In this document: piece after piece, positions 12 through 25,043 of the stretch | How positions within the stretch are numbered: the stretch's first letter is position 1 | Layout: each line of letters opens with the position of its first letter | DNA from: Ignavibacteria bacterium | Lineage (GTDB): Bacteria; Bacteroidota; Ignavibacteria; UBA10030; SZUA-254 | Direction: 5' to 3' | NCBI GenBank assembly: GCA_016178595.1 | Contig: JACOSY010000014.1 | Span: 4,256-68,255 of the forward strand | DNA: 64,000 nucleotides | Translations under genes and position numbers: made by a program | The notes under the pieces: generated by a model | What the model saw: the letters and a program-made list of their open reading frames with translations, nothing else | Databases searched by the model: none | Told to the model about the DNA's origin: nothing

Positions 12-791
12 CTATGAATGTATGTTGGTCGCAAGTTGAATCTTCATCCAGAAGTTGAGTGGCTCAGGGCGGCCTCCGAATCCACCAATTGGAGGCCCGC
101 CCATACCACGTCCCCGATAACCCCCGGGGCCTTCTCTGCTGCCGCCCCGTCGACTGCCGCCGGATGGCTGTTCGCCGCCTTCCTGACGGTGGACACTTTC
201 ACCGGTCTCAATCCCGATTCCGATCGTCTCTCCGGGTTGCGCTCCAACGCCGTAGAGATGTCCGCGATTATCCATGAGAGGAACTTTGAGTCTATACATC
301 AATGATCCGCCTTGATTGTCGATCGTGACGGTGACACCTTTTGTTTCGGAGAATGTCAGAAGATGATGCTCGTTCTCTCCGGGACCGAGGATTTCGAGAT
401 TTTGAGGTAACTGTTCCGGGAATATGAAAGAGGTATCGGGAGTACCTTCGGAGCGACGCGGACGTTCGCCCATAGAAACAATGTCTGTGCCCGTGGGATA
501 ACGGATCCCAAAACGTTTCTCGTTTCCACCGGCGTGATCAAACCAGACAGTGAGTCCACGGAAGAAGATTTGACGCAATGTCCTCCGGTCACCGGCAACG
601 AACGACAGGTAGACATACTCGTCGTCGTTCCCTATGTCGACGGCGAGGTTCTGATCCTTGATGTACTTTGCGCTGTCTTGCCACGACTCGGTATCGTTCG
701 TGTGCCATCGACTTGTCAGTTGTAACGATGACGAGCATCCGATGAAAATACAGGAAAGGATAACGAGACCGGATGCAATATTTTTCATCAA
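12..791 (-). CDS. Hypothetical lipoprotein with Gly/Arg-rich C-terminal tail
   Basis: 259-aa ORF. The N-terminal signal peptide has a lipobox (LSCIFIGCSS). The C-terminus is low complexity (GGSRRGGSREGPGGYRGRGMGG). No recognisable family. Confidence 0.5.
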   Translation of the reverse strand: MMKNIASGLVILSCIFIGCSSSLQLTSRWHTNDTESWQDSAKYIKDQNLAVDIGNDDEYVYLSFVAGDRRTLRQIFFRGLTVWFDHAGGNEKRFGIRYPTGTDIVSMGERPRRSEGTPDTSFIFPEQLPQNLEILGPGENEHHLLTFSETKGVTVTIDNQGGSLMYRLKVPLMDNRGHLYGVGAQPGETIGIGIETGESVHRQEGGEQPSGGSRRGGSREGPGGYRGRGMGGPPIGGFGGRPEPLNFWMKIQLATNIHS

Positions 792-1019
792 CTGCGCTCT
801 AAAAAATGGTGTGGAATGCCGATTTCACATTTGACAGCGTTGTTGGCGAGAAGTTTAAGAGAATGGAAGGTGTCGAGAAAATTATTCATATTTCATCAGA
901 CCCGGCAATGAGCAAAATGTCAATAAAATTCCTATCTTAAGCCATCCGCAGCTCTTGTTGTCAAAGAGCAGGTAGCCCGGATTCGGATTTTCATACAACA
1001 TTTCACGGAAGGAATATCC

Positions 1020-2165
1020 ATGAGCAGAAAGTTTCTCGTTCGTTCGTGCATTGCCACGAGTAGCATCCTCGTTTTCGCTACAATCATGATGAGCATAACG
1101 GGACGCAATCCATTGCACGCCCGCGTGCCCGACAAGACCGATGAACAAACCGTCGAGCAGGTGCGGAAGAATATCCAAGTACTCAAGGGGCTCCCCGCAT
1201 CGCAGCTCAACATGGTGATGGATTACGTGGCTACCTCGCTTGGCGTTCGCTGCCAGCACTGTCACGTCTCCGATTCGAGCGGCTGGCAATATGAGAAAGA
1301 CGATAAACAGACGAAGAACACTGCCCGGAAGATGATGCAGATGGTCATGGATTTGAACACAAAAAATTTTGGCGGACGAACTGCTGTGACTTGTTTTACC
1401 TGTCATCGCGGCTCGACGGAGCCTGCGAAAATAATTACTCTTCCACAACCTTCAGCGAAGCCAAGGCAAGAACAAACAACTGCGGTTCCTACATTTCCGA
1501 GTGTTGACCAGATACTCGGCATGTACGAGAAAGCCCTCGGAGGCACGGATGCGATGAAAAAGATTACTTCGCGTATGAGTAAAGGCGTCTCCGTCGATGA
1601 GCAGGGGAGAGAAGCACCGGTAGAGGTGGTACAACAAGCGCCAAATAAATATTCAGCTTCGGTCAGCGTGAGAGAGGGAATGCAGTTTACGCGCAGCTTC
1701 AATGGCACGAATGGATGGATGAATAGTCCGAGAGGCGCGCGTGAGATTCCGACGGATGAGCTTGACGGCTTTAGGCGCATTGCGCCACTCTTTCCGATCT
1801 CGAGAATCAGAGAACTCTCGAAGACCATGCAAGTCAGTCAGATCGACGCCGTAAACGGAGCAAGAGCGTACGTCCTCGCAGCACCGGTTAGTGAGAACAC
1901 GACCGAGCGCTACTATATCGACAGCGCGAGCGGTCTTCTTCTTCGCGGAGTCGTCGTAACGCAAACCATGATTGGCGACATTCCTGAACAGATCGATTAC
2001 AGCAATTACCGAGCTGTTGACGGTGCCATGATACCGTTTACTGTTCGGACGGCAGCCGTCGATCCGCGGGACGGTTCTACATATAAATTTACATCCGTCG
2101 AACAGAACGTCCCGATCGATGAGAAAAAATTCATGATGCTGGAAATGAAACAACGGCGAAGATAA
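1020..2165 (+). CDS. c-type dihaem cytochrome, photosynthetic-reaction-centre cytochrome c subunit-like family, with ~200-aa C-terminal extension
   Basis: Signal peptide. Two CxxCH haem motifs (CQHCH, CFTCH) in the spacing typical of the RC-cytochrome-c-like family found in non-phototrophic Acidobacteria/Gemmatimonadetes. RBS GGAAGG lies upstream of the ATG. Confidence 0.7.
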   Translation: MSRKFLVRSCIATSSILVFATIMMSITGRNPLHARVPDKTDEQTVEQVRKNIQVLKGLPASQLNMVMDYVATSLGVRCQHCHVSDSSGWQYEKDDKQTKNTARKMMQMVMDLNTKNFGGRTAVTCFTCHRGSTEPAKIITLPQPSAKPRQEQTTAVPTFPSVDQILGMYEKALGGTDAMKKITSRMSKGVSVDEQGREAPVEVVQQAPNKYSASVSVREGMQFTRSFNGTNGWMNSPRGAREIPTDELDGFRRIAPLFPISRIRELSKTMQVSQIDAVNGARAYVLAAPVSENTTERYYIDSASGLLLRGVVVTQTMIGDIPEQIDYSNYRAVDGAMIPFTVRTAAVDPRDGSTYKFTSVEQNVPIDEKKFMMLEMKQRRR

Positions 2166-2195
2166 ATTGTTCCCCGTCGCAAGACGTGCGATACC

Positions 2196-2232
2196 TCGCG
2201 AGCACAAAAGGCAGGCGATGAACCTGCCTTTT
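2196..2232 (+). terminator. Rho-independent terminator after the cytochrome gene
   Basis: Hairpin aggcagg-cgatgaa-cctgcct followed by a TTTTTTT run. Confidence 0.6.
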
Positions 2233-2249
2233 TTTATAAGGCGGCCTGA

Positions 2250-3128
2250 ATGAGAGAAAAGAAAATCGCTTTTGTCACGTCCATCGATTATCCCGAGTTG
2301 ACTGATGATGATCGAATAGCGTCGCAAGCTCTTCGATCCGAGGGTGTGCGCATTGTGCCGGTGGTGTGGAATGAACCTTCAACGGAGTGGGCAGAGTTCG
2401 ATGTGGTCGTCGTTCGTTCCTGCTGGGACTATCATCGCGCTCCCGATGCTTTTCGATCGTGGATCGATTCGATGGAAGAACACGACGTTCGCATCTGGAA
2501 TCCGCCCAATATTCTCCGATGGAACATGGAGAAGACGTATCTTTGCGACATCGAGAAAAGAGGCATTGCCATTCCACGAACGATTTTCCTGAACGATACG
2601 GATTCATTCGACGCACGCTCGATAATAGATCGCATTGGAACAAGCGATGTTGTCATTAAGCCGGCGATCTCTGCCTCGGCGTGGAGGACATGGAGATGCT
2701 CGCTGATCAACTTTTCCTCAGATGACAGAAATCGGCTGGACGAACTCAGTAGACAATCAAACATTATGGTGCAGGAATTCATGCCGGAGATTATCAAGGA
2801 CGGGGAGTGGTCGTTTATTTTTTTCGGCGATCGCTTCAGCCATGCAGTGCGAAAATATCCCGGCTCGAAAGACTTCCGCGTTCAGAAGGAACATGGGGGG
2901 AGGTATCATCCTATTCAGAATCTTCCCGTACCCCTCGTGCAAGAAGCGGAGAAAATCATTACAACGATTGAGGAGCCTATTCTGTACGCCAGGGTCGACG
3001 GTATCGAGCGCGAGGGGAAATTGATCCTCATGGAGCTTGAGCTTATCGAGCCGCAGCTTTTCTTCGACTCTCACCCGGATGCAGTAAAGCGCTTCATGGA
3101 ACAATTGCGTTTGCTTGCATTCGGGTAA
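2250..3128 (+). CDS. ATP-grasp family ligase (RimK/GshB-like)
   Basis: 292 aa. Pre-ATP-grasp N-domain followed by an ATP-grasp fold; motifs resemble the RimK/glutathione-synthetase-like group. The antisense ORF 2757-3875 is rejected. Confidence 0.55.
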   Translation: MREKKIAFVTSIDYPELTDDDRIASQALRSEGVRIVPVVWNEPSTEWAEFDVVVVRSCWDYHRAPDAFRSWIDSMEEHDVRIWNPPNILRWNMEKTYLCDIEKRGIAIPRTIFLNDTDSFDARSIIDRIGTSDVVIKPAISASAWRTWRCSLINFSSDDRNRLDELSRQSNIMVQEFMPEIIKDGEWSFIFFGDRFSHAVRKYPGSKDFRVQKEHGGRYHPIQNLPVPLVQEAEKIITTIEEPILYARVDGIEREGKLILMELELIEPQLFFDSHPDAVKRFMEQLRLLAFG

Positions 3129-3294
3129 CGTAAGAATATTGATTGACGCCGCTTGATGAGTTTCGCCTTCAGTCACCATTGCCTGTCGGATGATTCCAGT
3201 TGTTAACCGTTGCCTACATATCTCCGTCTTCCTTATGTAATCCCAATTGTTCCCGTTACTGCCGAGATATTCATTTTCAGAAAGGATTGTCCCA

Positions 3295-3791
3295 TGGATC
3301 AAATTCATGGAGAAACCAACATGTTTCTTGCACTCGTCGCTCTTGGCGGCTGGGTGCTGTGGCTCATCTTTCGGAGACAACAGGTACACGTCCAGGCGCG
3401 GATGAAGCGTACCGAGGTGTTCGATCACCTGATCGAAAAGTTCAGCACGAGCCAGGAGTTTATCGAATTCCTCAAGACCGATCAGGGGAAAAAGTTCGTC
3501 GAAGACCCGCTCCTCCTGCCGCAGTCCAATCCCTCGCGTGCGGTGTTGCGGTTCGTACAAGTGGGGATCGTGTTTGCGGCGATCAGCGTGGCGTTCCTGC
3601 TCAACTGGCTCAACATCAATCATTACGTCCAGACGGCGACAAACCCGGATATAAACGAGATACGGAAGGTGATGGATTATTACTACTGGGCGATGCTCTC
3701 GTTGACTCTTGCCGGCGGGATGTTCCTGATCGCAGCGGTGACGCGATTCCTGGCAAAGCGCTGGAACCTGAACGGTTCGCATGGTCGCTGA
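3295..3791 (+). CDS. Hypothetical 3-TM membrane protein immediately upstream of the ECF sigma factor
   Basis: Start chosen at the internal ATG with RBS (AAAGGA-N6-ATG). Three hydrophobic segments. Lies 18 nt upstream of the sigma gene. Confidence 0.5.
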
Positions 3792-3809
3792 GAAGGCTGC
3801 ATCCGGTAG

Positions 3810-4328
3810 ATGATGGAACAGCCTTTCGGTATGGATGAAGCGGCATTCCGCGCGTTCTATGAGGGCACGAGGCAATCGCTCTGGTCGTACATCATCCGCT
3901 CGCTCCGAGACACTACACGGGCAGATGATGTCTTTCAGGAATCGTACGTACGGTTCATCCAGAGTAGCGCGGGAACGTTGGAGCCGGCGCAGCAGCGTGC
4001 GTACTTATTCCGAACCGCATCGAACCTGCTGGTGGATCTTTACAGAAAACAGAAACGGCTGCAACCGATGAGCGCTGAGGCCGAACAGATGCACACCGAC
4101 AGCTACGACCGATCGAGCCATGCGATGGACGTGCGGCATGACGTAGGGAAGGCGTTCGATCAACTCACATCGCAGGAACGTTCACTCCTCTGGCTTGCGT
4201 ATGTCGAGGAGTATCCGCATAGAGAGATTGCCGGGATGCTGAAGGTAAAGGAGAAAAGTGTTAAGGTGTTGTTGTTTCGGGCGAAACGTCATCTGCTGCA
4301 GATTGCAGAGAACATAGGATTACGCTGA
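3810..4328 (+). CDS. RNA polymerase sigma-70 ECF-family sigma factor
   Basis: Region 2 (FQESYVRF) and region 4 HTH (YPHREIAGMLKVKEKSVKVLLFRAKRHL) are recognisable. Confidence 0.85.
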   Translation: MMEQPFGMDEAAFRAFYEGTRQSLWSYIIRSLRDTTRADDVFQESYVRFIQSSAGTLEPAQQRAYLFRTASNLLVDLYRKQKRLQPMSAEAEQMHTDSYDRSSHAMDVRHDVGKAFDQLTSQERSLLWLAYVEEYPHREIAGMLKVKEKSVKVLLFRAKRHLLQIAENIGLR

Positions 4329-4336
4329 AAGGAGAA

Positions 4337-4804
4337 ATGGTTATGAAAGAGTATTGTTCACGCGAGCCGGAAGTCGTTCGTGCACTAAAGGAGGATGCAT
4401 GGAACGAGGGGCTGCGAAGGCATACAGAGGATTGTACAGTGTGCAGCACGACCGCTGGAATCATGCCGATGATGAAGCAACTTGCTACTGATACATTGCG
4501 TGTAAGCCGCGCACTTCCGAGCTACCAATTGCTCTGGATACGCGCGCAATTTGTGAGACGGCAGGAGAAACTGTCGCTGCTCGACCTTGTTGCATTCATC
4601 GGTGCACTCGTGATCGGATTGACGGGGCTTCTCGGTGTGCTCATCTGGAAAGTGCCCGGAGTGTTCCAGTCAGTTTTCGGCTTCAAAGGACCGCAGCCGT
4701 CGGCGTGGACTGATTTGATACCCGTCGGTCTTCCGATGTTGATAGTGGTCGGTGGACTGTTACTCTACCTTGCTCTCTCGGATGTGTTTGTCGCAGAGCG
4801 ATGA
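4337..4804 (+). CDS. Anti-sigma factor, zinc-finger (ZAS-like) with one TM segment
   Basis: HxxxCxxC motif (HTEDCTVC) near the N-terminus followed by a hydrophobic TM. Lies directly after the ECF sigma gene. Confidence 0.65.
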   Translation: MVMKEYCSREPEVVRALKEDAWNEGLRRHTEDCTVCSTTAGIMPMMKQLATDTLRVSRALPSYQLLWIRAQFVRRQEKLSLLDLVAFIGALVIGLTGLLGVLIWKVPGVFQSVFGFKGPQPSAWTDLIPVGLPMLIVVGGLLLYLALSDVFVAER

Positions 4805-4993
4805 TGCAAGGGAAGTAAGAATTGCAAGAAGGAGGAGGGGAGGAGCGGTGAATGTGACAAGAAAATTATGTACGCTACAGTCGATTATTGACTGGTTGTC
4901 ATCATATACAAGAAGGAAGGAACCATGAGCAAATCCGAAATCATTCCAATGCATCCTTTATGAAGCATCGATAGATGGGGCTTAGCTCTCAAC

Positions 4994-5030
4994 AAAAAAA
5001 CCCCCTCTCCCGATTTTCATCGGGAGCAGG
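4994..5030 (-). terminator. Rho-independent terminator downstream of cspA (minus strand)
   Basis: On the minus strand: ctcccgat-gaaa-atcgggag hairpin followed by a T run. Confidence 0.6.
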
Positions 5031-5055
5031 GTTTGTGTTACGAATGATCTCTCGC

Positions 5056-5256
5056 TCAGGCGAGGGAGACGTTCGTCGCTTGAAGCCCCTTGGGGCCGGT
5101 CTCGACGTCGAACTGCACTGCATCACCCTCGTTCAGGTTTTTGTACCCGTCGCCGGTGATCGCTTTGAAGTGCACAAACACATCTTCGCCGCCGCTGCGT
5201 GAAATGAAGCCGTAACCTTTGGCCCCATTGAACCATTTTACTGTTCCTTTTTCCAT
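5056..5256 (-). CDS. cspA: Cold-shock protein CspA family
   Basis: 66 aa, [18 protein letters not shown]...; RNP1/RNP2 motifs of the cold-shock domain. Start refined to the internal ATG at 5256. Confidence 0.9.
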
Positions 5257-5598
5257 GGAACACATTCCTTTATATTTTGTAACCACCCGACTCAACCGTC
5301 GGGCAAGGTGTACGCCGAACATACGAACTCTTAAGCTATTCTTGAATGATGGCGTTACAGACCTTGGAAGGAATCGTACGGTTCATCAGCAGGAATCTAA
5401 AAGCGTGCTTTATTTGCAGGAATCTGCGGGTAAAGCTCTCCAGAAGGAGAATAGACGGTGTACTGTTATTTGTTAAAATTAAGATACATATATTCCATAT
5501 CAATTCCTAATTGAGTAAGCACTGGTTATTAATATCATGCAATGTCGCTTATCGCAATAAACCTTTCATATCTTTTCCGTATACTTCAGTAATACTGT

Positions 5599-9053: not shown

Positions 9054-9746
9054 ATGCCCCCACTCCTTCTTCTCCATGGCGCTCTCGGCTCGAAAGAGCA
9101 GTTCGATCCGCTTCTTCAACTCCTTTCAGATAATCTTCCTGTTCATTCATTGAACTTCACGGGCCACGGCAGCGTACCGCTCACCGATGAGCCGTTTTGC
9201 ATCGAGCTCTTTTGCACGGACGTGCTGGAATGGATGGATCGAGAGAAAATCGACTGCGCCGACATCTTCGGCTACAGTATGGGAGGCTGCGTCGGTCTTT
9301 TCCTCGCCCGGCACCATCCAACAAGGGTCAACAGGATCATGACCCTTGCGACAAAATTCCAGTGGGACGCAATCACCGCACAACGTGAAGCTGCACGCCT
9401 CGAACTGAAAGTAATCGAATCGAAGCTGCCTGCGTTTGCGCAACAACTCGCCCAACGCCACTCCGAGCAGAACTGGCGGGGGGTGGTTGAACGCACCGCC
9501 GCGATGATGCTGGCACTTGGAGAAAAGCCGACGCTCACGGAGCAAGACCTCTGCAGTATTCAGCACACCGTTCTCGTCAGCGTCGGCGACCGAGATACGA
9601 TGGTCGGAATCGAGGAAACGGCGGCAGCGTACCGCTCACTACCAAACGCGCAACTCCTTATCCTGCCCGGTACGCCGCATCCGCTTGAGCGTGTAGAACC
9701 AAAGCGGCTCGCGCGGGAAATCAAAGCATTCTTTTCAGTTGATTGA
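9054..9746 (+). CDS. Alpha/beta-hydrolase fold protein
   Basis: HGALGS oxyanion region. GYSMGG nucleophile elbow. Confidence 0.75.
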   Translation: MPPLLLLHGALGSKEQFDPLLQLLSDNLPVHSLNFTGHGSVPLTDEPFCIELFCTDVLEWMDREKIDCADIFGYSMGGCVGLFLARHHPTRVNRIMTLATKFQWDAITAQREAARLELKVIESKLPAFAQQLAQRHSEQNWRGVVERTAAMMLALGEKPTLTEQDLCSIQHTVLVSVGDRDTMVGIEETAAAYRSLPNAQLLILPGTPHPLERVEPKRLAREIKAFFSVD

Positions 9747-9995
9747 CATTGTCTCGACGAATCTCTACCTTGAAACGTCTTCTAACGGTGGATATTGTGC
9801 GATCAGAATAACCGGAAGTTTTTACACAGCTAATTCTTAAAAAAACTGAACTTGTACGACGTTCGACGTCTCTGTCGTATACTCCCGACGATCATGCCAG
9901 GCAAGATACGTAGATCACTCAGGGATATTTTTCAGCGAGAGACGACAAATCAATAAGAAGCCGTTACCGGTTCACGGAACCAAGAGGTGCCGCCG

Positions 9996-10145
9996 ATGAT
10001 TGAACAGACAATTTCACACTACGAACTCACCCTGTGGTCCCTCTCTAAAATTAGAGAGGGACGAAATGGCTTCGCCAGCGCCTCCCCTTCTCTAAGTTTA
10101 GAGAAGGGGAATGAGGGGATGAGTTCCGACGAAAGGACAGCATGA
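9996..10145 (+). CDS. Putative leader mini-ORF (49 aa) mimicking the kinase N-terminus, ATGA-coupled to kinase 1
   Basis: RBS AAGAGG. Begins MIEQTISHYEL (compare kinase MIGQTISHYKIL). Runs through two perfect palindromes. Its TGA stop overlaps the kinase ATG (gcATGAtc). Confidence 0.3.
   Translation: MIEQTISHYELTLWSLSKIREGRNGFASASPSLSLEKGNEGMSSDERTA
10030..10141. repeat. Palindromic repeat element type B (two 10-12 bp perfect hairpins), copy 1
   Basis: tccctctctaaaat/tagagaggga and ccccttctcta..tagagaagggg. Homologous to copies at 25044-25200 and 17843-17934. Confidence 0.7.
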
Positions 10146-12835
10146 TCGGTCAGACTATCTCCCACTATAAGATCCTCGAGAAGCTCGGCGAGGGCGGAAT
10201 GGGCATCGTCTACAAAGCCGAGGACACCAAACTTGATCGCATGGTTGCACTCAAGTTCCTCCCATCTCATCTCGCTGCATCGGAACAGGATAAAGCTCGC
10301 TTCATTCAAGAAGCGAAAGCAGCGGCTGCTCTGAACCATCCCAATGTATGCTCCATCATTGACATCCAGGAACATGATGGACAGATGTTCATCGTGATGG
10401 AGTTTGTGGACGGACAAACACTGAGAGAGAAAAAGGAGGCGATCAGCTTCAAGCAAGCAATCGATATTGGTATCCAGATTGCAGACGGTTTGGCTGCCGC
10501 TCATGAAAAAGGCATTGTCCACAGGGACATCAAACCGGAAAACATTATGGTGCGTAGAGATGGGATTTGCCAGGTCATGGATTTTGGTCTGGCAAAACTC
10601 CGGAATGCTTCGAGCAAAATTAACCGGTTGACAAAGGAAGGTAGCACGGTTGGAACTGCCGGTTACATGTCACCCGAGCAGGTGCAGGGACAGGATACTG
10701 ATCATCGATCGGATATTTTTTCTCTCGGTGTGCTGCTGTATGAGTTATTTACAGGTCAGCTTCCCTTCAAAGGAGTTCATGAAACGGCACTCTTGTACGA
10801 GATTGTGAATGTCGATGCGCCACCGATGTCTGCCGTTAAGCCGGAGATTGATCCGAGTCTGGACGCAATTGTTCTCGAATGTTTGGCAAAAGAACCGAGT
10901 GAGCGGTACCAATCAGTGGCAGAAGTAGGAAAAGAACTGCGAAGATTCAAACGTGAATCAAGCCGCTCACGCGTGAGCCGCGTGACCTCAGTTCGTGATG
11001 TGTACAAAAGCTCAACCGGAAATGTTCAAACTCCTTCTCCACAATTTTCCATATCGGAACCTTTGCCCGAGAAAAAATCGCGTTTGATCATCTGGTTATC
11101 GACAACAATACTCTTTGTTCTTTCGACTGCAGCATTGGCTTTTTTGTATTTGCGGGAATCTTCAAAAGAAATAAGCCCTGTTCGCTTTACCCTCTCGCCT
11201 CCGGCGAAAGGCGTCTTTGAAGGTTATGCGCCGGTCATCTCGCCCAGCGGACAGCTGCTCGCATTTGTTGCGAGGGATTCTTCCGGCAAGTCGATGATAT
11301 GGATTCGTCCCCTTGCGTTTCTTCGTTCTGAACCTCTTCCGGGAACCGATAATGCGACGTATCCTTTTTGGTCTCCCGATAGCCGCTTTCTCGGCTTCTT
11401 CCAAGGTGGCAAGCTGAAGAAGATCGAGGTCAATGGCGGGCCGGCACAAACTGTTGCCGATGCACCGGATGGCAGAGGCGGTTCGTGGAGCAACTCAGGG
11501 ATAATTATTTTTGCGCCGAGTTATGGAACCGGACTTGTCCAGGTTCCGGAATCAGGCGGCAAGCTAATAGAATTGACAACTCTTGACACGTCTCGCAGAG
11601 AAGAAACTCATCGCTTTCCTAATTTTTTGCCTGACGGTCAGCATTTTACCTATCTCAGTCGCAGTACTGAAGACGAAAAAACAGGTGCCTATCTCGGTTC
11701 ACTCGACGGAAAAGTCCATACGTTGCTTCTTCCTAATAAGTCCAACGTCATGTTTGCTGCCCCTGGCTATTTGCTCTTCATACGGGAGAGATCGCTCATG
11801 GCACAACCATTCAATGCAGACAAGGGTGAATTCCGAGGCGACGCGTTTCCGATTGCTCAGGACGTGGGAAGCAACACGCGCGGCAACGGCTTTTTTTCGT
11901 CTTCGGCAAATGGTGTCCTTGTTTTTGTCGGCGGTGGAGGGGCGAGCGGTGAGAGACAATTTGCGTGGTATGATCGTACCGGAAAGCGTCTTGAGAAAGT
12001 GGGCTCGCCCGGAAATCTCGGTGATATGGCACTCTCTCCGGATGAAAAGCGCGTCGTGTTTCGCCGCATCGATCCACAAACCAGCAATCAAGATCTCTGG
12101 ATTCTTGATCTCCTGCGCCGCACCGAGTCCCGGTTTACATTTCGTCCTGCCACGGACGACGATCCGGTATGGTCTCCTGACGGCAGCAAAATTGTTTTTG
12201 ATTCGAACCCTGATGGAGTACCGAATCCGTTCGAAAAGATAGCCACAGGAGCAGGAACTGAACAGCTCCTCTGGAAATTTTCCAGCTCTACCATTCCATA
12301 CGATTGGTCTTCAGACGGACGCTACATTCTTCTAAGACAAGAAAATCGCGATACAAAGAGTGATTTATGGGCTTTACCTCTCTTCGGGGAAAAGAAACCC
12401 TTCCCTGTTCTCCAAACGGAAGCTTCAGAAGATGTTGGGCGCTTCTCTCCCGATGGACGGTGGATTGCCTATGAGTCGGATGAGTCCGGGAAATCTGAGG
12501 TGTACATTCAGGCATTTCCTGCAAGTCAGGGGAAATGGCAGGTGTCAGTCAATGGTGGTGGGGCGCCGCTGTGGAGCAAAGATGGTAAGGAAATCTTTTA
12601 CCTTGCACCGGATAAGAGATTGATGGTCGTCGATGTCAAGCTCCTGGGTACCTCGATCGAACAAGGAATTCCTAAACCACTCTTTGATACTTTTGTTGAT
12701 AATTATGATGCACCCAACCGTTATGCCGTTTCCAGAGATGGGAAGCGGTTTCTTGTCAATAACTCGACCGATAGTGACAGCTCAAAACCAATTATGGTAG
12801 TGTTGAACTGGACGGCGGAGGTAACGAAGAAATGA
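10142..12835 (+). CDS. Ser/Thr protein kinase with TM segment and C-terminal TolB-like (PD40/WD40-like) beta-propeller
   Basis: Hanks kinase motifs (GxGxxG, VALK, HRDIKPEN, DFG, SPE). Hydrophobic TM at ~aa 310. Repeated SPDG/PD40 motifs in the C-terminal half. Confidence 0.9.
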   Translation: MIGQTISHYKILEKLGEGGMGIVYKAEDTKLDRMVALKFLPSHLAASEQDKARFIQEAKAAAALNHPNVCSIIDIQEHDGQMFIVMEFVDGQTLREKKEAISFKQAIDIGIQIADGLAAAHEKGIVHRDIKPENIMVRRDGICQVMDFGLAKLRNASSKINRLTKEGSTVGTAGYMSPEQVQGQDTDHRSDIFSLGVLLYELFTGQLPFKGVHETALLYEIVNVDAPPMSAVKPEIDPSLDAIVLECLAKEPSERYQSVAEVGKELRRFKRESSRSRVSRVTSVRDVYKSSTGNVQTPSPQFSISEPLPEKKSRLIIWLSTTILFVLSTAALAFLYLRESSKEISPVRFTLSPPAKGVFEGYAPVISPSGQLLAFVARDSSGKSMIWIRPLAFLRSEPLPGTDNATYPFWSPDSRFLGFFQGGKLKKIEVNGGPAQTVADAPDGRGGSWSNSGIIIFAPSYGTGLVQVPESGGKLIELTTLDTSRREETHRFPNFLPDGQHFTYLSRSTEDEKTGAYLGSLDGKVHTLLLPNKSNVMFAAPGYLLFIRERSLMAQPFNADKGEFRGDAFPIAQDVGSNTRGNGFFSSSANGVLVFVGGGGASGERQFAWYDRTGKRLEKVGSPGNLGDMALSPDEKRVVFRRIDPQTSNQDLWILDLLRRTESRFTFRPATDDDPVWSPDGSKIVFDSNPDGVPNPFEKIATGAGTEQLLWKFSSSTIPYDWSSDGRYILLRQENRDTKSDLWALPLFGEKKPFPVLQTEASEDVGRFSPDGRWIAYESDESGKSEVYIQAFPASQGKWQVSVNGGGAPLWSKDGKEIFYLAPDKRLMVVDVKLLGTSIEQGIPKPLFDTFVDNYDAPNRYAVSRDGKRFLVNNSTDSDSSKPIMVVLNWTAEVTKK

Positions 12836-12936
12836 TCGGTCAAATCCCAAAACTGCCCGCGAGTGTTCTTCAACGAGTGGCTACAGTTTTGCGGATCCCG
12901 ACGTTTTTTGTCGGGACCCATGGGAGTTCTTTATGA
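12832..12936 (+). CDS. Linker mini-ORF (34 aa, MIGQIPKL...) ATGA-overlapping both kinase 1 stop and kinase 2 start
   Basis: Its ATG overlaps the kinase-1 TGA and its TGA overlaps the kinase-2 ATG. It encodes through the type A two-hairpin element. Confidence 0.3.
   Translation: MIGQIPKLPASVLQRVATVLRIPTFFVGTHGSSL
12846..12932. repeat. Two-hairpin spacer element type A, copy 1
   Basis: Stem caaaactg...cagttttg plus stem cccgac..gtcggg. Homologous (~75%) to 17748-17827 with compensatory changes in both stems. Confidence 0.6.
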
Positions 12937-15305
12937 TAGGACAAACAATATCCCACTATAAGATCCTCGAGAAGCTCGGCGAGGGCGGGATGGGCATCGT
13001 CTACAAAGCCCAGGATACCAAGCTTGATCGTATTGTCGCGCTAAAGTTTCTTCCTCACAATCTCACCGCGAACGAAGCGGAAAAATCCCGCTTTGTACAA
13101 GAGGCACGGGCTGCAGCCATCCTCAACCATCCGCACGTCTGTACTATTTATCGTATCGATGAATATAACGGTCAACAATTCATTGAGATGGAATATGTCG
13201 ATGGTGAAACCCTGCGGCGGAAAGTTCCGATCCAAAAGATTGAGGAAGCGTTACGCTGTGCGATTCAGATCGGAGAAGCGTTGCAAGAAGCCCACAGCAA
13301 AGGGATCGTTCACCGCGACATCAAGTGCGAAAACATTATGGTGAACTCGAAGAACCAGATTAAAGTAATGGACTTCGGTCTCGCGAAACTCAAAGGCTCT
13401 ATGAAACTGACACGGACCTCAAGCACGGTCGGTACGCTCGCCTACATGGCGCCGGAACAAATCCAAGGCGGAGAGGTGGATGCACGGTCCGATATCTTTT
13501 CGTATGGCGTTGTTATCTTTGAAATGTTCACAGGGCACACGCCGTTCCGTGGAGAGCACGAGGCGTCGATGATGTATTCCATAATGAACGAAGATCCTGA
13601 ACAACTCGTGAAGTACAGACCCGAACTATCGACCGATATCCAGCGCATTATTAACCGCGCATTGGAAAAAGATCCGGAAGATCGGTATCAACATGCCGAT
13701 GATATGGTGAGTGAATTGCGTCGTGTTCAAAAACAATCGGGGCGCGTAACACGAACAATGCAGATTGAGTCGTCTCCAACGATGCCGGCAACGACAAAGG
13801 ATCAACAAAGTGATCGCGAAAGCGTTCCGCGACTGAAATCAAAGATAAAACTTATTATCGGAATGATCTCGGTAGCGGTGATCATCGGTGTCGCTGCGCT
13901 GTATTTTCTGTTCAACAAGCAGAAGGCAATAGATTCCTTAGCTATTCTGCCATTTGAAGATGTTAGTGCAGCACCTGAACAAGAGTATCTTGCCGATGGC
14001 GTGACGGAAAGTATCATCAACAATCTTACGAAGATCTCTTCACTGAGAGTTGTTCCCCGCAGTACGGTCTTTCGTTTCAAAGGGAAGGATATGGATCTTC
14101 AGGATATCGGTTCAAAGCTCAAAGTCAATGCAATATTGACGGGAAGAATCACACACAGAGGTCAGTCGCTTGAAGTTCAAGTCGACCTGATCGATGTTGA
14201 TCGTCAATCGCAATTGTGGGGTAATCGTTATGTATCGACTGCAAGCGATTTGCTGACACTCCAGGAGAGCATTACAAAAGATGTTTCATCGAAACTCGGA
14301 ATTGGGTTTTCCTCGGAAACTCAAGAAAAACTTGCGAAGCGCTACACGGACAACACACAGGCGTATCAACTATACATGCAAGGGCGTTACTACTGGAATA
14401 AACGCACTGCGGCGGCACTCGAACGTGCCATTAGTTATTTCAATCAAGCCATTGCGCTCGACTCTACCTTTGCTCTTGCGTATAGTGGATTAGCCGATAG
14501 CTACATCATTCAGTCACAGTACGCCGGGATACCCACAGGCATTACTCTTCCATTGACGCAAAGGGCTGTACGGCGAGCGTTGGAACTGGACAATTCTCTT
14601 GCCGAGGCGCATACAACGCTTGCGTTCAGTTATTTTGAGCAGTGGAAGTATGAGGATGCGGAGCGCGAGTTCAAACAATCCATCGCGTTGAACCCCCGGT
14701 ATGCGACAACATATCACTGGTATGGCATTATGCTCGGCAGAACCGGCAATCCCGATCGCTATCTTGCCGTTATCAAGCAAGCACTAGAGATTGATCCGTA
14801 CTCCCCTATCATCACGCTCAATATGGGGGTGGCAAATTTGCTTTTGAAACAGTATGACGAAGCGTTGAGCTATTTCAAAAAGTGTGTGGAGATTGATCCC
14901 TCCTTTGCCGTTGGATACGGCTGGATGGGACTTACGTATGAACGAATGAAAAACTATCGTGACGCGCTATCACCGCTGCAAAAAGCCGTTGAGTTATCCG
15001 GTCGCTCGAGTGAATGCTTATCATATATCGGGTATTTTTATGGACGTGTCGGAAAAAGAGATGAGGCGCTCAAGCTTATCAAGGAAAATGAGGATCGCTA
15101 TCACGCAGGCACCGGCGCCGCCTATAGCATCGCTCGCATCTATGCAGGATTGGGTGAGAAGGAAAAGGTTCTGGAATTATTGGAGCAAGACTACCGCGAT
15201 CATAGTACATGGATTAATTCTCTCGGCAGCGATTACGTGTGGGATGATGTCCGCAGCGATCCCCGGTTTGTTGAGTTGACGAAGAAGGTAGGTTTGGTGA
15301 AATGA
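12933..15305 (+). CDS. Ser/Thr protein kinase with TM, juxtamembrane ectodomain module and C-terminal TPR repeats
   Basis: Kinase motifs as above. TM at ~aa 300. Conserved LAILPFEDVS...EYLADGVTESII module, then TPR-like repeats. Confidence 0.9.
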   Translation: MIGQTISHYKILEKLGEGGMGIVYKAQDTKLDRIVALKFLPHNLTANEAEKSRFVQEARAAAILNHPHVCTIYRIDEYNGQQFIEMEYVDGETLRRKVPIQKIEEALRCAIQIGEALQEAHSKGIVHRDIKCENIMVNSKNQIKVMDFGLAKLKGSMKLTRTSSTVGTLAYMAPEQIQGGEVDARSDIFSYGVVIFEMFTGHTPFRGEHEASMMYSIMNEDPEQLVKYRPELSTDIQRIINRALEKDPEDRYQHADDMVSELRRVQKQSGRVTRTMQIESSPTMPATTKDQQSDRESVPRLKSKIKLIIGMISVAVIIGVAALYFLFNKQKAIDSLAILPFEDVSAAPEQEYLADGVTESIINNLTKISSLRVVPRSTVFRFKGKDMDLQDIGSKLKVNAILTGRITHRGQSLEVQVDLIDVDRQSQLWGNRYVSTASDLLTLQESITKDVSSKLGIGFSSETQEKLAKRYTDNTQAYQLYMQGRYYWNKRTAAALERAISYFNQAIALDSTFALAYSGLADSYIIQSQYAGIPTGITLPLTQRAVRRALELDNSLAEAHTTLAFSYFEQWKYEDAEREFKQSIALNPRYATTYHWYGIMLGRTGNPDRYLAVIKQALEIDPYSPIITLNMGVANLLLKQYDEALSYFKKCVEIDPSFAVGYGWMGLTYERMKNYRDALSPLQKAVELSGRSSECLSYIGYFYGRVGKRDEALKLIKENEDRYHAGTGAAYSIARIYAGLGEKEKVLELLEQDYRDHSTWINSLGSDYVWDDVRSDPRFVELTKKVGLVK

Positions 15306-15396
15306 TCGGACAGATAATTTTTAAATTGACTCATTGTCCCATTGATTCATTTATCCAATGTGTTCAATGAGCAAATGAGAAAATGAAAACATTATC

Positions 15397-17736
15397 ATGA
15401 TCGGTCAAACGATATCACATTACAAGATTCTCGAAAAGCTCGGCGAAGGCGGGATGGGCATCGTGTACAAAGCCCACGATGAAAAACTTGATCGCATGGT
15501 TGCCCTGAAGTTTCTCCCTGCGACTGTCGTCTCATCGCAGGACGAGGCTGTGCGTTTCGAGCGGGAGGCAAAGGCAATCTCCGCTCTCAATCATCCCGGC
15601 ATTGCTACTATCCATGACATTGATGAAACCGACGGGAAGAAATTTCTCGTTTTGGAGTACATCTCCGGGGGCACGCTGAAATCAAAACTCAAAAAGCTTA
15701 AGTCTGATGATAAAGAGTTTACGGTTGCGGAGGTGATCGACTACGGCATCCAGATGGCTGAAGGACTGGGCCACGCCCACAGGCATCAGATCGTCCATCG
15801 CGATGTCAAGAGCGACAACGTGATGCTGACCGAAGAAGGCAAAGTGAAAATCACCGACTTCGGTCTGGCGAAACTCCGGAGCACAACGCATCTGACAAGG
15901 ACAGGCAGTACGATCGGCACACTTGCGTACATGGCACCTGAGCAATTGCGGGGCGAGGAAATCGATCATCGTGCCGACTTGTTTTCACTCGGTGTTGTCC
16001 TCTACGAAATGGCAACTTCGCGTCTTCCCTTCCGGGGCGAGCATGAAGCGGCGTTGACGTATTCGATTGCGAATGAGGATCCGGCTCCTGTGAAGTCACT
16101 TCGGCCGAATCTGCCGCCGGTGCTGGAACAGGTCATCACGAAATGTCTGCAGAAGGACAGAGCACTTCGCTACCAGAGCGCAGATGAGATTGTTGCTGAC
16201 TTGCGCACATTGCAGCACGAAACGACAGGCACGGTGAAAACCGTCGTCGTGAAGCAACAATCGAAACTTCAATGGATGATTGCGTCGGCGCTTGTAGTGG
16301 TTGTCGCTGTCGCACTCTATCTCCTCATGCCATCATCACATCCCACATCGACAAATAGTAAAACGATCGCCGTTCTGCCGTTTGTCAATATGAGCGGCGA
16401 CCCGCAGGACGAGTATTTCAGTGATGGAATGACGGAAGACATTCTGACACAACTTTCCAAGATCGCCGATTTGAAAGTTATCTCCCGCACCTCGGTGATG
16501 AAATATAAACATACAGAGAAATCAATACGGGAGATCGGGAATGATCTCAATGCCGGCGTAGTGCTTGAAGGGAGCGTGCGACGAGCTGAAAATCAAATAC
16601 GCATCACTGCGCAGTTGATCGACGCCAGCACTGATGAGCACCTCTGGGCAGAAAGCTACGACAAGGAGTTCAAACAGATTTTCGCGGTCCAGAGTGATGT
16701 CGCACAACGGGTTGCAGATGCGCTCAAGATTCAATTGATGGGTGACGAAAAGCGATCGGTCGAAAAAGAGGCAACGCAGAACCTCGAAGCCTATAATCTC
16801 TATCTTAAAGGACGCTACTTCCTGGGCAAGAGGACCGAAGACGGGCTGAAGAAGGCGATAGAATTTTTCCAACAAGCGGTCGAGAAAGATACTGCGTACG
16901 CAATTGCTTATGCCGGACTCGCAGATTCGTATACCCTGCTTGCGCTGCTGGAATTTCTTCCTCCTCGAGAGGCATTTCCGAAAGCAAAAGCTGCTGCCGA
17001 AAAAGCAATTATGATTGATCCATCGATCGCAGAGGCGCACGCTTCATTAGGGGTCGTGAGATTTCAGTACGATTGGGATTGGCCCGCGGCTGAACAAGAA
17101 TATACTCGCGCAATTGCACTGAAGAAAAATTATGGAACAGCACACCACTACTATGCCGACTTTCTGAAAGGTATGGGTCGCTTCGATCAAGCACTCTCCG
17201 AAATTAAGAAAGCCCAGGAGCTCGATCCACTCTCGCTGGCAATTAACACCGGCCTCGGTCACGTCCTCTATTTGTCCCGGCACTACGATCAAGCGATCGA
17301 GCAATATCGACGAACCCTGGAAATGGATCCCAATTTCCTGCAGGCAAGGCTCTGGTTTGGCAGACCCTATCTGCAAAAGAAGATGTACAAAGAAGCGATT
17401 TCTGAATTACAGGCGGCTGTACAACTGTCTGGCAACAGTACAATCGCATGTGCCATGCTCGGACACGCGTACGCTGCTGCGGGAAACAAAAAAGAAGCTT
17501 TGAAAATGCTCGATGAGTTGACAAAAAGATCCGAGCATCAGTATGTTCCCTCATATTGGATTGGAATGATCTACATTGGCTTCGGCGATAAGGACAAAGC
17601 CTTTGCCTGGCTTGATAAGGCATACGATGAGCGATCTGCCTGGTTGGCGTGGCTCAAAGTGGAGCCGAGATTTGATACTTTGCGCTCAGACCAGCGCTTC
17701 ACGACACTTTTAAAGAAGATGGGACTGGAACAATGA
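15397..17736 (+). CDS. Ser/Thr protein kinase with TM, juxtamembrane module and C-terminal TPR repeats (paralog)
   Basis: Same architecture as 12933-15305. IAVLPFVNMSGDPQDEYFSDGMTEDIL module plus TPR repeats. Confidence 0.9.
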   Translation: MIGQTISHYKILEKLGEGGMGIVYKAHDEKLDRMVALKFLPATVVSSQDEAVRFEREAKAISALNHPGIATIHDIDETDGKKFLVLEYISGGTLKSKLKKLKSDDKEFTVAEVIDYGIQMAEGLGHAHRHQIVHRDVKSDNVMLTEEGKVKITDFGLAKLRSTTHLTRTGSTIGTLAYMAPEQLRGEEIDHRADLFSLGVVLYEMATSRLPFRGEHEAALTYSIANEDPAPVKSLRPNLPPVLEQVITKCLQKDRALRYQSADEIVADLRTLQHETTGTVKTVVVKQQSKLQWMIASALVVVVAVALYLLMPSSHPTSTNSKTIAVLPFVNMSGDPQDEYFSDGMTEDILTQLSKIADLKVISRTSVMKYKHTEKSIREIGNDLNAGVVLEGSVRRAENQIRITAQLIDASTDEHLWAESYDKEFKQIFAVQSDVAQRVADALKIQLMGDEKRSVEKEATQNLEAYNLYLKGRYFLGKRTEDGLKKAIEFFQQAVEKDTAYAIAYAGLADSYTLLALLEFLPPREAFPKAKAAAEKAIMIDPSIAEAHASLGVVRFQYDWDWPAAEQEYTRAIALKKNYGTAHHYYADFLKGMGRFDQALSEIKKAQELDPLSLAINTGLGHVLYLSRHYDQAIEQYRRTLEMDPNFLQARLWFGRPYLQKKMYKEAISELQAAVQLSGNSTIACAMLGHAYAAAGNKKEALKMLDELTKRSEHQYVPSYWIGMIYIGFGDKDKAFAWLDKAYDERSAWLAWLKVEPRFDTLRSDQRFTTLLKKMGLEQ

Positions 17737-17747
17737 TCGGATAAATT

Positions 17748-17827
17748 CCAAAACTCCCCACGAACGAAGTGAGTGGATGGAGTTTTGAGAATCCCGCTGT
17801 TCTTTAGCGGGACCTAATGGAGACTTG
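17748..17827. repeat. Two-hairpin spacer element type A, copy 2
   Basis: caaaactcc...ggagttttg and tcccgc..gcggga stems. Flanked by ATGATCGG kinase-start-like motifs. Confidence 0.6.
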
Positions 17828-17842
17828 ATGATCGGACAAATA

Positions 17843-17934
17843 ATTTCACACATACCCTCACCCTATAATCCCTCTCCCAAATTGGGAGAGGGATGTCACG
17901 AAGTGACAGGGAGAGGGTCAACAAGGGCAAGGCT
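17843..17934. repeat. Palindromic repeat element type B variant
   Basis: tccctctcccaaat/tgggagaggga perfect palindrome plus tgtcac-gaa-gtgaca. Preceded by ATGATCGGACAAATAATTTCACAC. Confidence 0.55.
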
Positions 17935-18236
17935 ATGATTGGGACGACCGTTTCTCACTACAAGATACTTGAGAAGCTGGATGAGGCGCCATGGGCGTAG
18001 TCTACAAAGCCGAAAACACCAAGCTCGATTGGATTGTTGCCATCAAGTTTTTTTCTAAGCGACTTTCCGCCCACGGAGAGAAGCATGAGTTGCTTGATTT
18101 TGACGCTCATGGCCGGGTGACCCTCACTGATGTGACTGCAGATGGCAGTCGGTTCTTGATTTCCAACTCTCCTGCCGGACTGGTTCAACCGATCACGATG
18201 GTGACAAATTGGGACAAGGAGTTGAAGAAGAAATGA
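17935..18236 (+). pseudogene. Ser/Thr kinase paralog remnant: internally deleted and frameshifted
   Basis: MIGTTVSHYKILEKL then a -1 frameshift versus paralogs (gagggcgg to gagg-cgcc). The kinase N-terminus (~35 aa) is joined directly to a TolB-type C-terminal tail (QPITMVTNWDKELKKK, compare the kinase-1 end PIMVVLNWTAEVTKK). Confidence 0.7.
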
Positions 18237-24377: not shown

Positions 24378-25043
24378 GTTTGTTCCCTCCTTTAAGATGA
24401 ATGCCTTATGTGTATGCTGAACTTTTCCCCCGGAGCGCCTTCAATGAGATACAGTCAGGCGGTGGACGAATCACCAATGGTGATGAGAGAGAAATAATTG
24501 GTATCAGGTTCATGGCCGAGATCCGGAAAGTATGCGAGAGTAGACTCGCAAGATATATCTACGGTGAAAACGTTTCAGAGATGGGTGCGGAAAGAACCCG
24601 ATGAGGAGATAGCATAATACATTTGCGCACTGACTGACTCGTGGTCATTCGCTTCCTCAAAGCGAGGATATTTCCCTCGTCGCTGTGAGTCTTATGTCTC
24701 GGAGGGAATGATGACTTCCGATCCCGCGGCGCTGTTGCGGAACCAAACCAAGCGTGCCCCTATCCGTTCTAATGAATTGATCGGAATAAGTGGAATATAC
24801 ATTTGTACTCTTCGAAAGTCAAGTTCCTGGCGTATGAGCCATCGACTCATAAAAAAGGTAGCCGAACGGAGTCCGGAAAAGAGTTGTTGCATCATATATA
24901 TATATATGCAGCCATCTCAGTTTGTACTGAAACACGTTCCTTGACTTTCCTTCTGCTCTATAGTGAATGAGATATTAACGATGAAGGAACACCTGGCCAA
25001 ACGTATGTGGGCGTGAAGAAGATGTTATTGATGAAATAGTAAC

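Follow-up and report, generated by a model that had tools for sequence, protein, structure and literature searches.

The 64,000-nt stretch of DNA analyzed here (the window), from an Ignavibacteria bacterium (assembly GCA_016178595.1, contig JACOSY010000014.1), carries three palindromic repeat elements near 10.0, 17.85 and 25.1 kb, and the first two are each preceded by a short copy of a protein kinase start. Hanks-type Ser/Thr kinase genes in tight tandem arrays offer, within their first 14-63 nt, a slot that is used by a distinct sublineage of one kind of element, designated type B, by the related type A and by several unrelated palindromic inserts; at empty sites the genes overlap by ATGA or lie no more than 6 nt apart, and at filled sites the order is start copy (S'), insert, tail, and real start (S). 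The elements are interpreted, with moderate confidence and from sequence comparison, as repeats similar to REPINs (repetitive extragenic palindromic (REP) doublets forming hairpins) that sit in duplicated kinase starts, spread by homology, and are tolerated through relay upstream open reading frames (uORFs) that preserve translational coupling. As far as could be found, the combination of palindromic repeats in duplicated gene starts, phase-locked relay uORFs and a clade of REP-associated tyrosine transposase (RAYT) genes with the same start is undescribed.

At the 10.0 kb site the S' leader ATGATTGAACAGACAATTTCACACTAC (9996-10022, + strand; 27 nt) is a diverged kinase-start copy encoding MIEQTISHY; it is followed by the type-B element (10022-10128, +), a purine-rich, Shine-Dalgarno-like tail ACGAAAGGACAGC (10129-10141, +) with counterparts in all kinase-linked copies, and the ATG of the first kinase, K1, at 10142. 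The element consists of an outer inverted repeat (CGAACTCACCC, 10022-10032, and GGGGATGAGTTCCG, 10115-10128) around three hairpins, namely a perfect hairpin 1 (TCCCTCTCTAA-AA-TTAGAGAGGGA, 10038-10061), a small one in the middle (10067-10077) and hairpin 2 (TCCCCTTCTCTAA-GT-TTAGAGAAGGGGA, 10083-10110), whose arms are complementary at 13/13 positions, all on the + strand; in all it makes up two REP-like units in inverted orientation. The S' opens uORF0 (9996-10145, +; 49 codons), the sole open frame across the spacer, which runs through the whole element to a TGA (10143-10145) overlapping the K1 ATG as ATGA. At 17.85 kb the S' leader ATGATCGGACAAATAATTTCACAC (17828-17851, +), a 24-nt kinase-start copy encoding MIGQIISH, precedes a type-A element (17854-17918, +) with outer inverted repeat ACCCTCACCCT (17854-17864) and AGGGAGAGGGT (17908-17918), a first hairpin ATCCCTCTCCCAA-A-TTGGGAGAGGGAT (17868-17894; arms 13/13) and a second, GTCAC-GAA-GTGAC (17895-17907), again all on the + strand; here uORF3 (17828-17938, +; 36 codons) crosses the element and its TGA overlaps the ATG (17935) of a kinase remnant, K4.

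The preliminary description, made from the sequence of the window, had reported palindromes and kinase-start-like leaders at these sites, and both are real. It had placed all three elements in one type-B family; this stands for the 10.0 and 25.1 kb copies, the 17.85 kb copy being a distinct subtype, here named type A, with relatives of its own. The outer inverted repeat is CGAACTCACCC / GGGGATGAGTTCG in type B and ACCCTCACCCT / AGGGAGAGGGT in type A; this repeat, which closes each element, had been missed. Mini-ORFs were said to read through the palindrome, which they do, with the correction that they run past the element to a TGA overlapping the kinase ATG. As the letters of the loop differ from copy to copy, the likeness drawn between SPKLGEG in such an ORF and EKLGEGG of the kinases probably arises from translating GGGAGAGGG in this frame; an origin of the element from palindromized G-loop codons (KLGEG) was dropped, as the loop letters vary and the non-kinase copies have no such similarity.

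The same order at kinase 5' ends, S' (24-27 nt), element, purine-rich tail of 13-18 nt (~16) and S, is fixed and recurs in at least ten further contigs. L022 and L030 came from a genome scan described below; L050, with a type-A cassette, from a metagenome scan for the junction of S' and the left end; and L051-L055 and the contig of P0005, with type-B cassettes, from six predicted proteins of 44-50 aa homologous to the window uORF. Five of the six open MIGQTIS(H) or MIGQTIL(R) and continue ..LTLWSLSKIREG; P0002 is called from an internal ATG, and an in-frame ATG upstream of it gives MIGQMISH. L057 holds two diverged B-like units in tandem, with S' (27 nt) before the second. Type-B copies linked to kinases make up a separate subfamily, which the spacer ACGnAnTGGCTTCGCC and the apex TAA..TTA mark out, and the orientation of the element is identical across kinase-linked copies. 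The association with kinase 5' ends proposed in the preliminary description is therefore recurrent for this sublineage in other genomes and metagenomes; it does not hold for most of the 36 family copies found elsewhere, which are intergenic.

The length of S' goes with the type of insert: it is 26-27 nt in 8/8 sequenced type-B loci (the window and seven contigs), 24 nt where a type-A element or a RAYT gene follows, 57 nt in two loci (L022, L050) for type C, a CCGACTACGCTCC... hairpin, and either 14-15 nt (window, before inserts at 12846 and 17750) or 63 nt (L030, L058) for type D (AAAAYTGCCC...). Type D consists of AAAAYTGCCCRCGA...CAGTTTT followed by a GGATCCCG...CGGGACC hairpin and is also seen at L030:1086-1162 and L058:3311-3390. 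The occupants of the slot are diverse, comprising insert types A-F, a GTAG-tagged REP and a RAYT gene. A GTAG-tagged REP-like palindrome, GTAGGTCGACGAGTCTCGTCGACCTAC, lies between S' and the kinase start at L051:115-141; its core TCGACGAG..CTCGTCGAC is a module also present within the 25.1 kb copy and L030.

Empty sites, which the preliminary description had proposed looking for in related strains, were found. L052 contains one pair of kinases (777-3464 and 3461-5584) joined by an ATGA overlap and another pair with 6 nt between them. A filled and an empty state can also be compared in L058 and the insert-free L056, in which synteny is conserved and the promoter-proximal upstream DNA is ~90% identical right up to the first start copy, S'1. 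Where L056 shows just one start, L058 carries two start copies, S'1 (27 nt) and S'2 (63 nt), which are followed by inserts of 68 and 80 nt respectively, and then S; homology between the two contigs picks up again after codon 21. An unusual Lys-4 codon of the L056 start is common to S'1 only, which suggests that S'1 is the resident start of L058 and that the functional start was imported. Dating of this event by synonymous divergence compares ~32% of kinase-domain codons that differ synonymously between L056 and L058 with 43% between S'2 and S, in genomes that are too diverged for the purpose.

These data also bear on whether S' could instead be a deletion relic, the rest of a kinase having been removed up to an existing intergenic palindrome acting as a breakage hot spot, with no insertion at any time. 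Palindromes are known end-points of deletions, decay of the arrays is seen in the K4 remnant with its large internal deletion, and synonymous differences between S' and S would suit two starts that were both once functional. Against this, the remnants would have to fall into the clustered lengths given above (26-27 nt in 8/8 B loci, 57 nt twice and 63 nt twice), every deletion would need to stop, on its right side, just 13-18 nt short of the next ATG, and the promoter-proximal DNA common to L056 and L058 up to S'1 carries no trace of lost genes; deletion is considered quite unlikely.

The second type-B copy in the window, at 25.1 kb (25043-25179, +), has the outer repeat CCGAACTCACC / GGGGGATGAGTCCG and hairpins 1 and 2 that are 85% and 88% identical to those of the 10.0 kb copy in the repeat-family comparison; GGGGATGAGT lies at 25167-25176, and additional palindromes are nested in it (TCGACGAGTCGAGTCGTCGAC, TCCCAAAGGGATCCCTTTGGGA at 25083-25104, and GCGCGATCGCGC). 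Both neighboring genes are on the minus strand, and the gap between them is 1.1 kb. The copy is flanked by a direct repeat, its left copy GTGAAGAAGATGTTATTGATGAA (25013-25035, +; 23 nt) and its right copy GTGAACGAGATGTTGTTGATGAA (25206-25228, +) separated from the element by a 26-nt tail (25180-25205); the repeat has 19 matches over 23 nt, longer than the ~19 bp first claimed for it, is unique in the window, and gave no match when sought elsewhere. Perfect palindromes with no loop, centered on GGATCC and CGATCG, lie at 25083-25104 and 25126-25137 within this copy; many modules of the family are symmetric to the very center, which is commoner in DNA-level symmetry than in RNA hairpins. A short (AT)7 run is present at 24896-24909, ~100 nt upstream of the left direct repeat.

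Where the repeats begin and how they differ bears on the origin of the duplicated start. Whether 14, 19, 24-27, 57 or 63 nt long, the repeats start precisely with the ATG and have nothing in common ahead of it, which points to recombination between kinases limited by homology rather than to staggered cuts. Codon differences between S' and S are 41 synonymous against 19 non-synonymous, with 21% synonymous expected (p = 3e-15); at 9996, five of the first eight codons differ from the true start at 10142, four of them synonymously. Classical target-site duplication followed by neutral decay was rejected on this synonymous excess. Where a palindrome of 24 nt had gone into an S' without function (L051 ~6296, L052 ~5604), no duplication resulted. 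Flanking repeats were absent from most of the copies tested, a test weakened by mosaic flanks (SPRUCE and MFD genomes); those attributable to the site are confined to the kinase-linked copies and the 25.1 kb copy, as the repeats at L010 and L041, which exceed the 99th percentile of controls, are neighboring repeat modules. The idea that the flanking repeats are ordinary target-site duplications is thus not borne out, since they are absent from most copies, begin at the ATG and differ mainly synonymously; the term "recombinogenic", also used in the preliminary description, fits the evidence of homology-driven spread.

An ordinary MITE (miniature inverted-repeat transposable element) with a long target-site duplication, in which cuts staggered by ~24-27 nt duplicate the kinase start and the uORFs are incidental, is kept as a competing explanation. 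It would account for the terminal inverted repeats of 12-13 bp, for the identity (24/24) of the two repeats in L030 and for the B repeat being about as long near kinases (26-27 nt) as it is around the 25.1 kb copy (23-28 nt), and IS1634-type elements do make long target duplications. The spacing of a cut cannot know the position of an ATG, yet every repeat length starts there, and the mainly synonymous differences, the insertion in L051 and L052 without duplication, and the lack of a flanking repeat that stands out in most other copies (with the weakness of mosaic flanks noted) count against it in the same direction; a MITE of this kind is judged unlikely.

The uORFs opened by S' in the kinase-linked sublineage are 32-64 codons long and appear phase-locked to the kinase that follows. 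The distance from S' to S is 2 mod 3 in 15/18 automatically detected spacers (binomial p = 1.9e-5) and in 11 of 13 distinct spacer lengths (p = 2e-4); the uORF ends on the next ATG in 13/18 (as ATGA, and once as TAATG), and 3 more end within 15 nt. The S' frame was the only open frame in 5/6 ATG-ending cases first examined. The window and L030 use different frames of the same type-D insert, each of them open, and TAG in the frame used at kinases (CTGTAG or CTATAG) is found in about half of the non-kinase B copies, the kinase-linked copies all having TGG. A long target-site duplication does not predict this phase bias, and deletion leaves both the phase and the open-frame bias unexplained. Overlaps of the ATGA kind support coupling by termination-reinitiation (PMC6728339), and the uORFs are predicted to relay ribosomes over the structured insert and so keep the translational coupling of the array. 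The peptide sequence is the element read in one frame, and a protein search with the 41-aa type-A uORF gave no match. Hopping (translational bypass) and an in-frame extension of the kinase were rejected, as a complete start and tail follow the elements and the uORFs have stops; a leader-peptide attenuator does not fit a scan of 9700-10200 free of terminators or a uORF that is the element in one frame.

A related proposal is that uORF and structured RNA form a dedicated cis-regulatory leader, evolved as an attenuator or sensor of kinase expression, with the repeats secondary. Open, recurrent uORFs locked to the kinase ATG, strong predicted RNA structure and the same element orientation in all kinase-linked copies are what such a leader would have; the same element is nevertheless met, in both orientations relative to genes, in intergenic DNA away from kinases, where about half of the copies have a stop in the frame used at kinases, and many unrelated inserts occupy the same slot. 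No terminator, alternative pairing or Rfam family was seen in the elements, and near-perfect palindromes with an apex of 1-2 nt and few G-U pairs resemble DNA-level symmetry. A dedicated leader is therefore regarded as improbable.

The slot is also filled by a gene. In L022 a 213-aa protein contains an HUH motif (MPNHVHG), YDYS..YFVT and a weak Y1_Tnp match, and has 3,397 homologues, many of which are named "REP element-mobilizing transposase RayT" by their sources; the first eight codons of the gene are an S'. The eight closest clusters read (P0007-13 and P0016; 58-82% identity) start MIGQTISH or a near variant, and P0014 and three remoter homologues sampled (P0017, P0083, P0106) have other starts. 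RAYT genes at L022:4260-4901 (-), L056:6001-6639, L057:6001-6588 and L058:6001-6627 begin 0-8 nt after a kinase stop, and that of L057 lies inside the kinase array with its own stop overlapping the next kinase ATG; the RAYT gene thus fills the same S'...S slot as the hairpin inserts. The nearest elements on the same contig are ~2-3 kb away in L022 and L057. RAYT may be the mobilizing enzyme, a recognizer of the kinase start, or one more passenger.

A mechanism in three steps is proposed. REPIN-like repeats would first be mobilized, probably as single-stranded hairpins, by a class-2 Y1/HUH transposase (RAYT); the S'...S slot also houses a RAYT clade starting MIGQTISH. A kinase whose 5' end had received an insertion would then be rescued by copying the start and a short upstream tail from a paralogous kinase, and the S'-insert-tail-S cassette would spread by homology-dependent repair, a homing-like conversion of the synthesis-dependent strand annealing (SDSA) type with the conserved start as both arms; spread by homology would have the duplications begin at the ATG, keep the length of S' constant per insert type and leave differences that are mainly synonymous. 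Finally, the uORF would relay ribosomes across the insert by termination-reinitiation at ATGA, and the arrangement would be retained because coupling as it existed before insertion is preserved. A stronger version, which can be put forward only tentatively, is a homing-like system in which REPIN palindromes and the MIGQTISH-RAYT clade spread specifically among paralogous kinase 5' ends: the cassette would bring a replacement start and ribosome-binding tail, the resident start would become a relay uORF selected to end on the kinase ATG, and RAYT of this clade may recognize or cut the first 24 nt of the kinase ORF. If true, this would be a homing-like system in which a domesticated transposase and repeat pair targets the start of a protein-coding gene.

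Several observations weigh against the proposal of homology-borne REPIN-like repeats with relay uORFs. The mobilizing enzyme, the origin of the duplication and the translation of the uORFs are each deduced from sequence; the link between enzyme and element is one of co-location only, as the RAYT genes of L022, L056, L057 and L058 have no adjacent ACTCACCC...GGGTGAGT element and no RAYT (Y1 HUH, PF01797) is present in the 64-kb window. The identical S'1 and S'2 of L030 (24/24) are as a true target duplication would give, so that this locus fits either the homology model or true duplication, and the synonymous bias could be explained by duplication followed by conversion of the functional copy from a paralog. 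The 25.1 kb copy has the same geometry with a repeat that is unrelated to kinases and no gene following, and the kinase-homology model does not explain its order of repeat, element, tail and repeat. Full type-B copies have a mean identity of 88% (12 copies, at least 8 assemblies) with invariant stems, and their host kinases share only ~50% amino-acid identity; invariant stems across such kinases call for strong constraint or recent horizontal transfer, and the apparent conservation of hairpin 1 is itself inflated in loci L003-L048, which were picked by an exact hairpin-1 match. The function of the uORFs is predicted from phase and open-frame statistics, which rest on partly homologous, non-independent cassettes.

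The wider family was surveyed, as the preliminary description had proposed, by an exact scan for the hairpin-1 20-mer CCTCTCTAAAATTAGAGAGG in 185,579 species genomes, a collection outside which the genome of the window falls. The scan gave 47 loci against ~1 expected by chance, and 36 of these are family copies with the architecture ACTCACCC(C), at least one palindrome and (G)GGGTGAGT. Their hosts are Bacteroidota, Ignavibacteriota, Kryptonia, Latescibacterota and Chlorobiaceae-labelled metagenome-assembled genomes (MAGs); matches number 11 (at 9 loci) for a single Bacteroidota MAG, 6 for Kryptonia JGI-2 and 5 for a single Ignavibacteriota MAG, and the density in the window is 3 copies per 64 kb. 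Most of the 36 copies lie in ordinary intergenic mosaics, in either orientation relative to genes, and the family is one of bacteria of the Fibrobacteres-Chlorobi-Bacteroidetes (FCB) group; genomes rich in elements have a patchwork of other palindromes around the copies. Type B is non-coding and ~105 nt long, built of a unit with the tag CGAACTCA(T)CCC, ~6 nt and a perfect palindrome of 10-12 bp. Its left half aligns with the reverse complement of its right (CGAACTCA-CCC..CCCTCTCTA.. with CGAACTCATCCCC..CCCCTTCTCTA); the halves are versions of one unit, and type B is therefore a REPIN-like inverted dimer. The terminal inverted repeats CCGAACTCACCC / GGGGATGAGTTCGG are 12-13 bp long with one bulge. 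GTAG stands 2 nt before hairpin 1 in 5 copies, the others having GTGG, ATAG, ATGG or ATAA, and is found at the hairpin-2 apex in the non-kinase subfamily. The family is modular, with extra palindromes between modules and even within a hairpin arm. Type-A relatives were found in metagenomes (L049, L050), where the second hairpin is wholly swapped for other stems. A parent insertion sequence (IS) with the same termini was not seen in 60 loci, in which no dedicated search for one was made.

Some loci of the survey have features of their own. A perfect palindrome, CCTGCCTGCC|GGCAGGCAGG, is nested in the right arm of hairpin 2 at L030:957-976 and in L039 (~1900-1980; longer loop). L030 (JAHFMB010000100) bears a Candidatus Taylorbacteria label, yet has a type-B element and kinases of the type seen in the FCB group, and is probably mis-binned. 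Three copies of a related element lie head-to-tail at 258-259 bp spacing in L015:12-583, a contig of a Bacteroidales MAG. In Ekhidna/Fulvivirga, small ORFs that are candidates for DUF559/Vsr-like proteins, a call made by motif only (R.N.T..E..LW..LR), immediately follow the element in L023 (~4333, -), L031 (~7649, +) and L027, the last ~70 nt downstream.

The remaining 11 of the 47 loci are plain A-run/T-run bidirectional terminators in unrelated taxa (L002, L011/L017, L018/L042, L019, L021, L024, L026 and L037/L045), with hosts that include Peribacillus, Hyphomicrobiaceae and Anaerolineae and some sites beside Flavobacteriia tRNA genes. They are convergent uses of a simple hairpin, and the bare hairpin core is not diagnostic of the family. 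That the same 20-mer serves as a terminator in 11 unrelated loci is what could be said for the elements being intrinsic terminators or mRNA-stabilizing hairpins with no mobility. No T-run follows the window hairpins, the sequence after the hairpin is not T-rich in any window copy, and a scan of 9700-10200 found no terminator-like site; the elements also lie upstream of genes and inside open uORFs, and a conserved outer inverted repeat, modular nesting and multi-copy spread are not terminator features. This explanation is very improbable, and the earlier view of a dispersed REP- or MITE-like family, not terminators, is upheld by the lack of a T-run and of an Rfam family.

The palindromes are well outside chance expectation. 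Degenerate hairpin patterns match 2 times each in the window and 0.00 times in shuffled sequence, and the palindromes reported at the three sites are confirmed; the GGGGATGAGT decamer by itself is not above chance in the window. The folding energies of the three regions are -59.5, -42.3 and -76.1 kcal/mol (z = -7.7, -7.1 and -6.4), with no shuffle equal to any, and since the outer inverted repeat closes each element, each region takes a predicted multi-branch fold. Pair counting over an alignment of 12 copies finds 96% of cells paired and compensatory changes at two pairs, one at the hairpin-2 apex (A-T/C-G, 5 vs 6 sequences) and the other a single outer-stem pair. The stems are perfect palindromes nearly to their center, with 1-2 unpaired apex bases and almost no G-U pairs. 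No covariance model of Rfam 15 matched in the window at the gathering threshold; at a permissive threshold nothing meaningful was found there either, the elements giving sub-threshold, miRNA-like hairpin matches only (E ~0.07-1).

Among known systems, the elements are most readily set beside REP/REPIN-RAYT systems and the mosaics known as bacterial interspersed mosaic elements (BIMEs) (Nunvar 2010; Bertels & Rainey 2011; PMC3733652; PMC6006769), with which they share short tagged palindromes, inverted pairing of units into one long folded hairpin and clusters mosaic with other palindromes; a class-2 Y1/HUH RAYT gene lies at some of the same loci, and in part of the copies GTAG, or a version with one letter changed, stands 2 nt before hairpin 1 and at the apex of hairpin 2. 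Unlike REPs, the tag is ACTCACCC rather than bare GTAG or CGTC; unlike a REPtron, the RAYT genes have no flanking elements, which is the defining feature of that arrangement; and unlike REPINs, which are lineage-specific, near-identical copies are found over phylum-level distances, with one sublineage inside translated uORFs (as predicted) in duplicated gene starts. RAYT-like genes flanked by inverted repeats sharing GGGGWSAS have been reported (Di Nocera et al. 2013, PMC3733652; also PMC6006769); GGGGTGAG fits this consensus, and the outer inverted repeat GGGGTGAGT (GGGGATGAGT in type B) is a match or near-match to it. The TIRYT/"TIRtron" families are likewise moderately abundant and occur as dimers or clusters, but their repeats flank the transposase gene itself, which the elements here do not, and they are mainly from Proteobacteria and Acidobacteria with no gene-start association reported (PMC3733652).

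Co-transcribed MITEs such as Correia/NEMIS, ERIC, RUP and Nezha resemble the elements in their terminal inverted repeats, length of ~100 nt, strong RNA folding and insertion beside or into transcription units; the elements differ in that perfect palindromes are nested in them in place of simple terminal repeats, that a short target duplication of fixed length is lacking and that no related autonomous IS was found. Rickettsia palindromic elements (RPE) and REPs inside ORFs are also translated palindromes that leave the host gene intact, yet RPE are in-frame insertions in the mature protein, whereas here a separate upstream ORF is translated (predicted) and the host protein is unchanged. Termination-reinitiation at ATGA or TGATG (Huber et al. 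2019, PMC6728339) matches the overlap of the uORF stop with the kinase ATG (TAATG once), and uninterrupted kinase arrays use the same ATGA overlap between kinases; unlike known coupling, a relay ORF whose start copies that of the downstream gene bridges a non-coding insert, an arrangement of which no description was found. The proposed copying of the insert into empty alleles by flanking homology is like the homing of group I introns and inteins, and the carrying of a replacement gene end, with the gene intact and direct repeats flanking the site, is like integration into tRNA genes or icd; no endonuclease or integrase is known for these cassettes, however, and the target is the 5' ends of a paralog family, not a single locus, with the same 24-27 nt sequence as both arms. 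A literature search by sequence string returned nothing relevant.

If the proposed arrangement is correct, selfish palindromic repeats can colonize operons that have no intergenic DNA harmlessly, the duplicated start making the insert a translated bridge. It would also provide a testable case of selection on uORF phase in bacteria that use Shine-Dalgarno sequences little, and it suggests that non-coding cassettes move by homology, in a homing-like manner, through a large family of paralogous genes. The RAYT lineage, found in physical linkage with kinase arrays, could help settle the role of RAYT and repeats outside Proteobacteria. For annotation, the arrangement would explain recurrent "hypothetical proteins" of 44-64 aa starting MIGQTISH and mis-called kinase starts in MAGs of the FCB group.

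The window gave a match to a MAG contig, JACPZI010000067 of GCA_016195625.1. Its kinase array contains four Hanks-type kinase genes in tandem, K1, K2, K3 and the deleted remnant K4, and all kinase stop codons of the window sit in an S' (aaATGATCGGTCAAAT, aaATGATCGGACAGATAATTT, caATGATCGGATAAATTCC). K1 (10142-12835, +) encodes an 897 aa protein with Pkinase and a PD40/Tricorn beta-propeller; its TGA stop lies within the next S', ATGATCGGTCAAAT (12832-12845, +). That S' opens uORF1 (34 codons; S' and uORF together 12832-12936, +), which crosses a type-D palindromic insert (12846-12932, +) of the same type as in L030 and L058 and whose TGA overlaps the K2 ATG at 12933. K2 (12933-15305, +) encodes 790 aa with Pkinase and TPR, and its stop is overlapped by S' ATGATCGGACAGATAATTT and the 22-codon uORF2 (together 15302-15370, +), which ends 26 nt before the ATG of K3. 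K3 (15397-17736, +), also with Pkinase and TPR, encodes 779 aa and stops within S' ATGATCGGATAAATTCC (17733-17749, +), after which a second type-D insert (17750-17825, +) precedes the type-A cassette. K4 (17935-18236, +) keeps the start and G-loop region, followed by a frameshift and a large internal deletion that joins the start region to the last ~35 codons of a PD40-type kinase. K1 and K2 are identical at 59/60 nt over positions 19-78 (10160-10219 and 12951-13010) and at 71% over the first 291 nt, a tract that looks like recent gene conversion among kinase 5' ends. Unrelated to the kinase elements, the region 41200-52200 of the window carries internally repetitive genes that end in C-terminal sorting-domain sequences of the type IX secretion system (T9SS).

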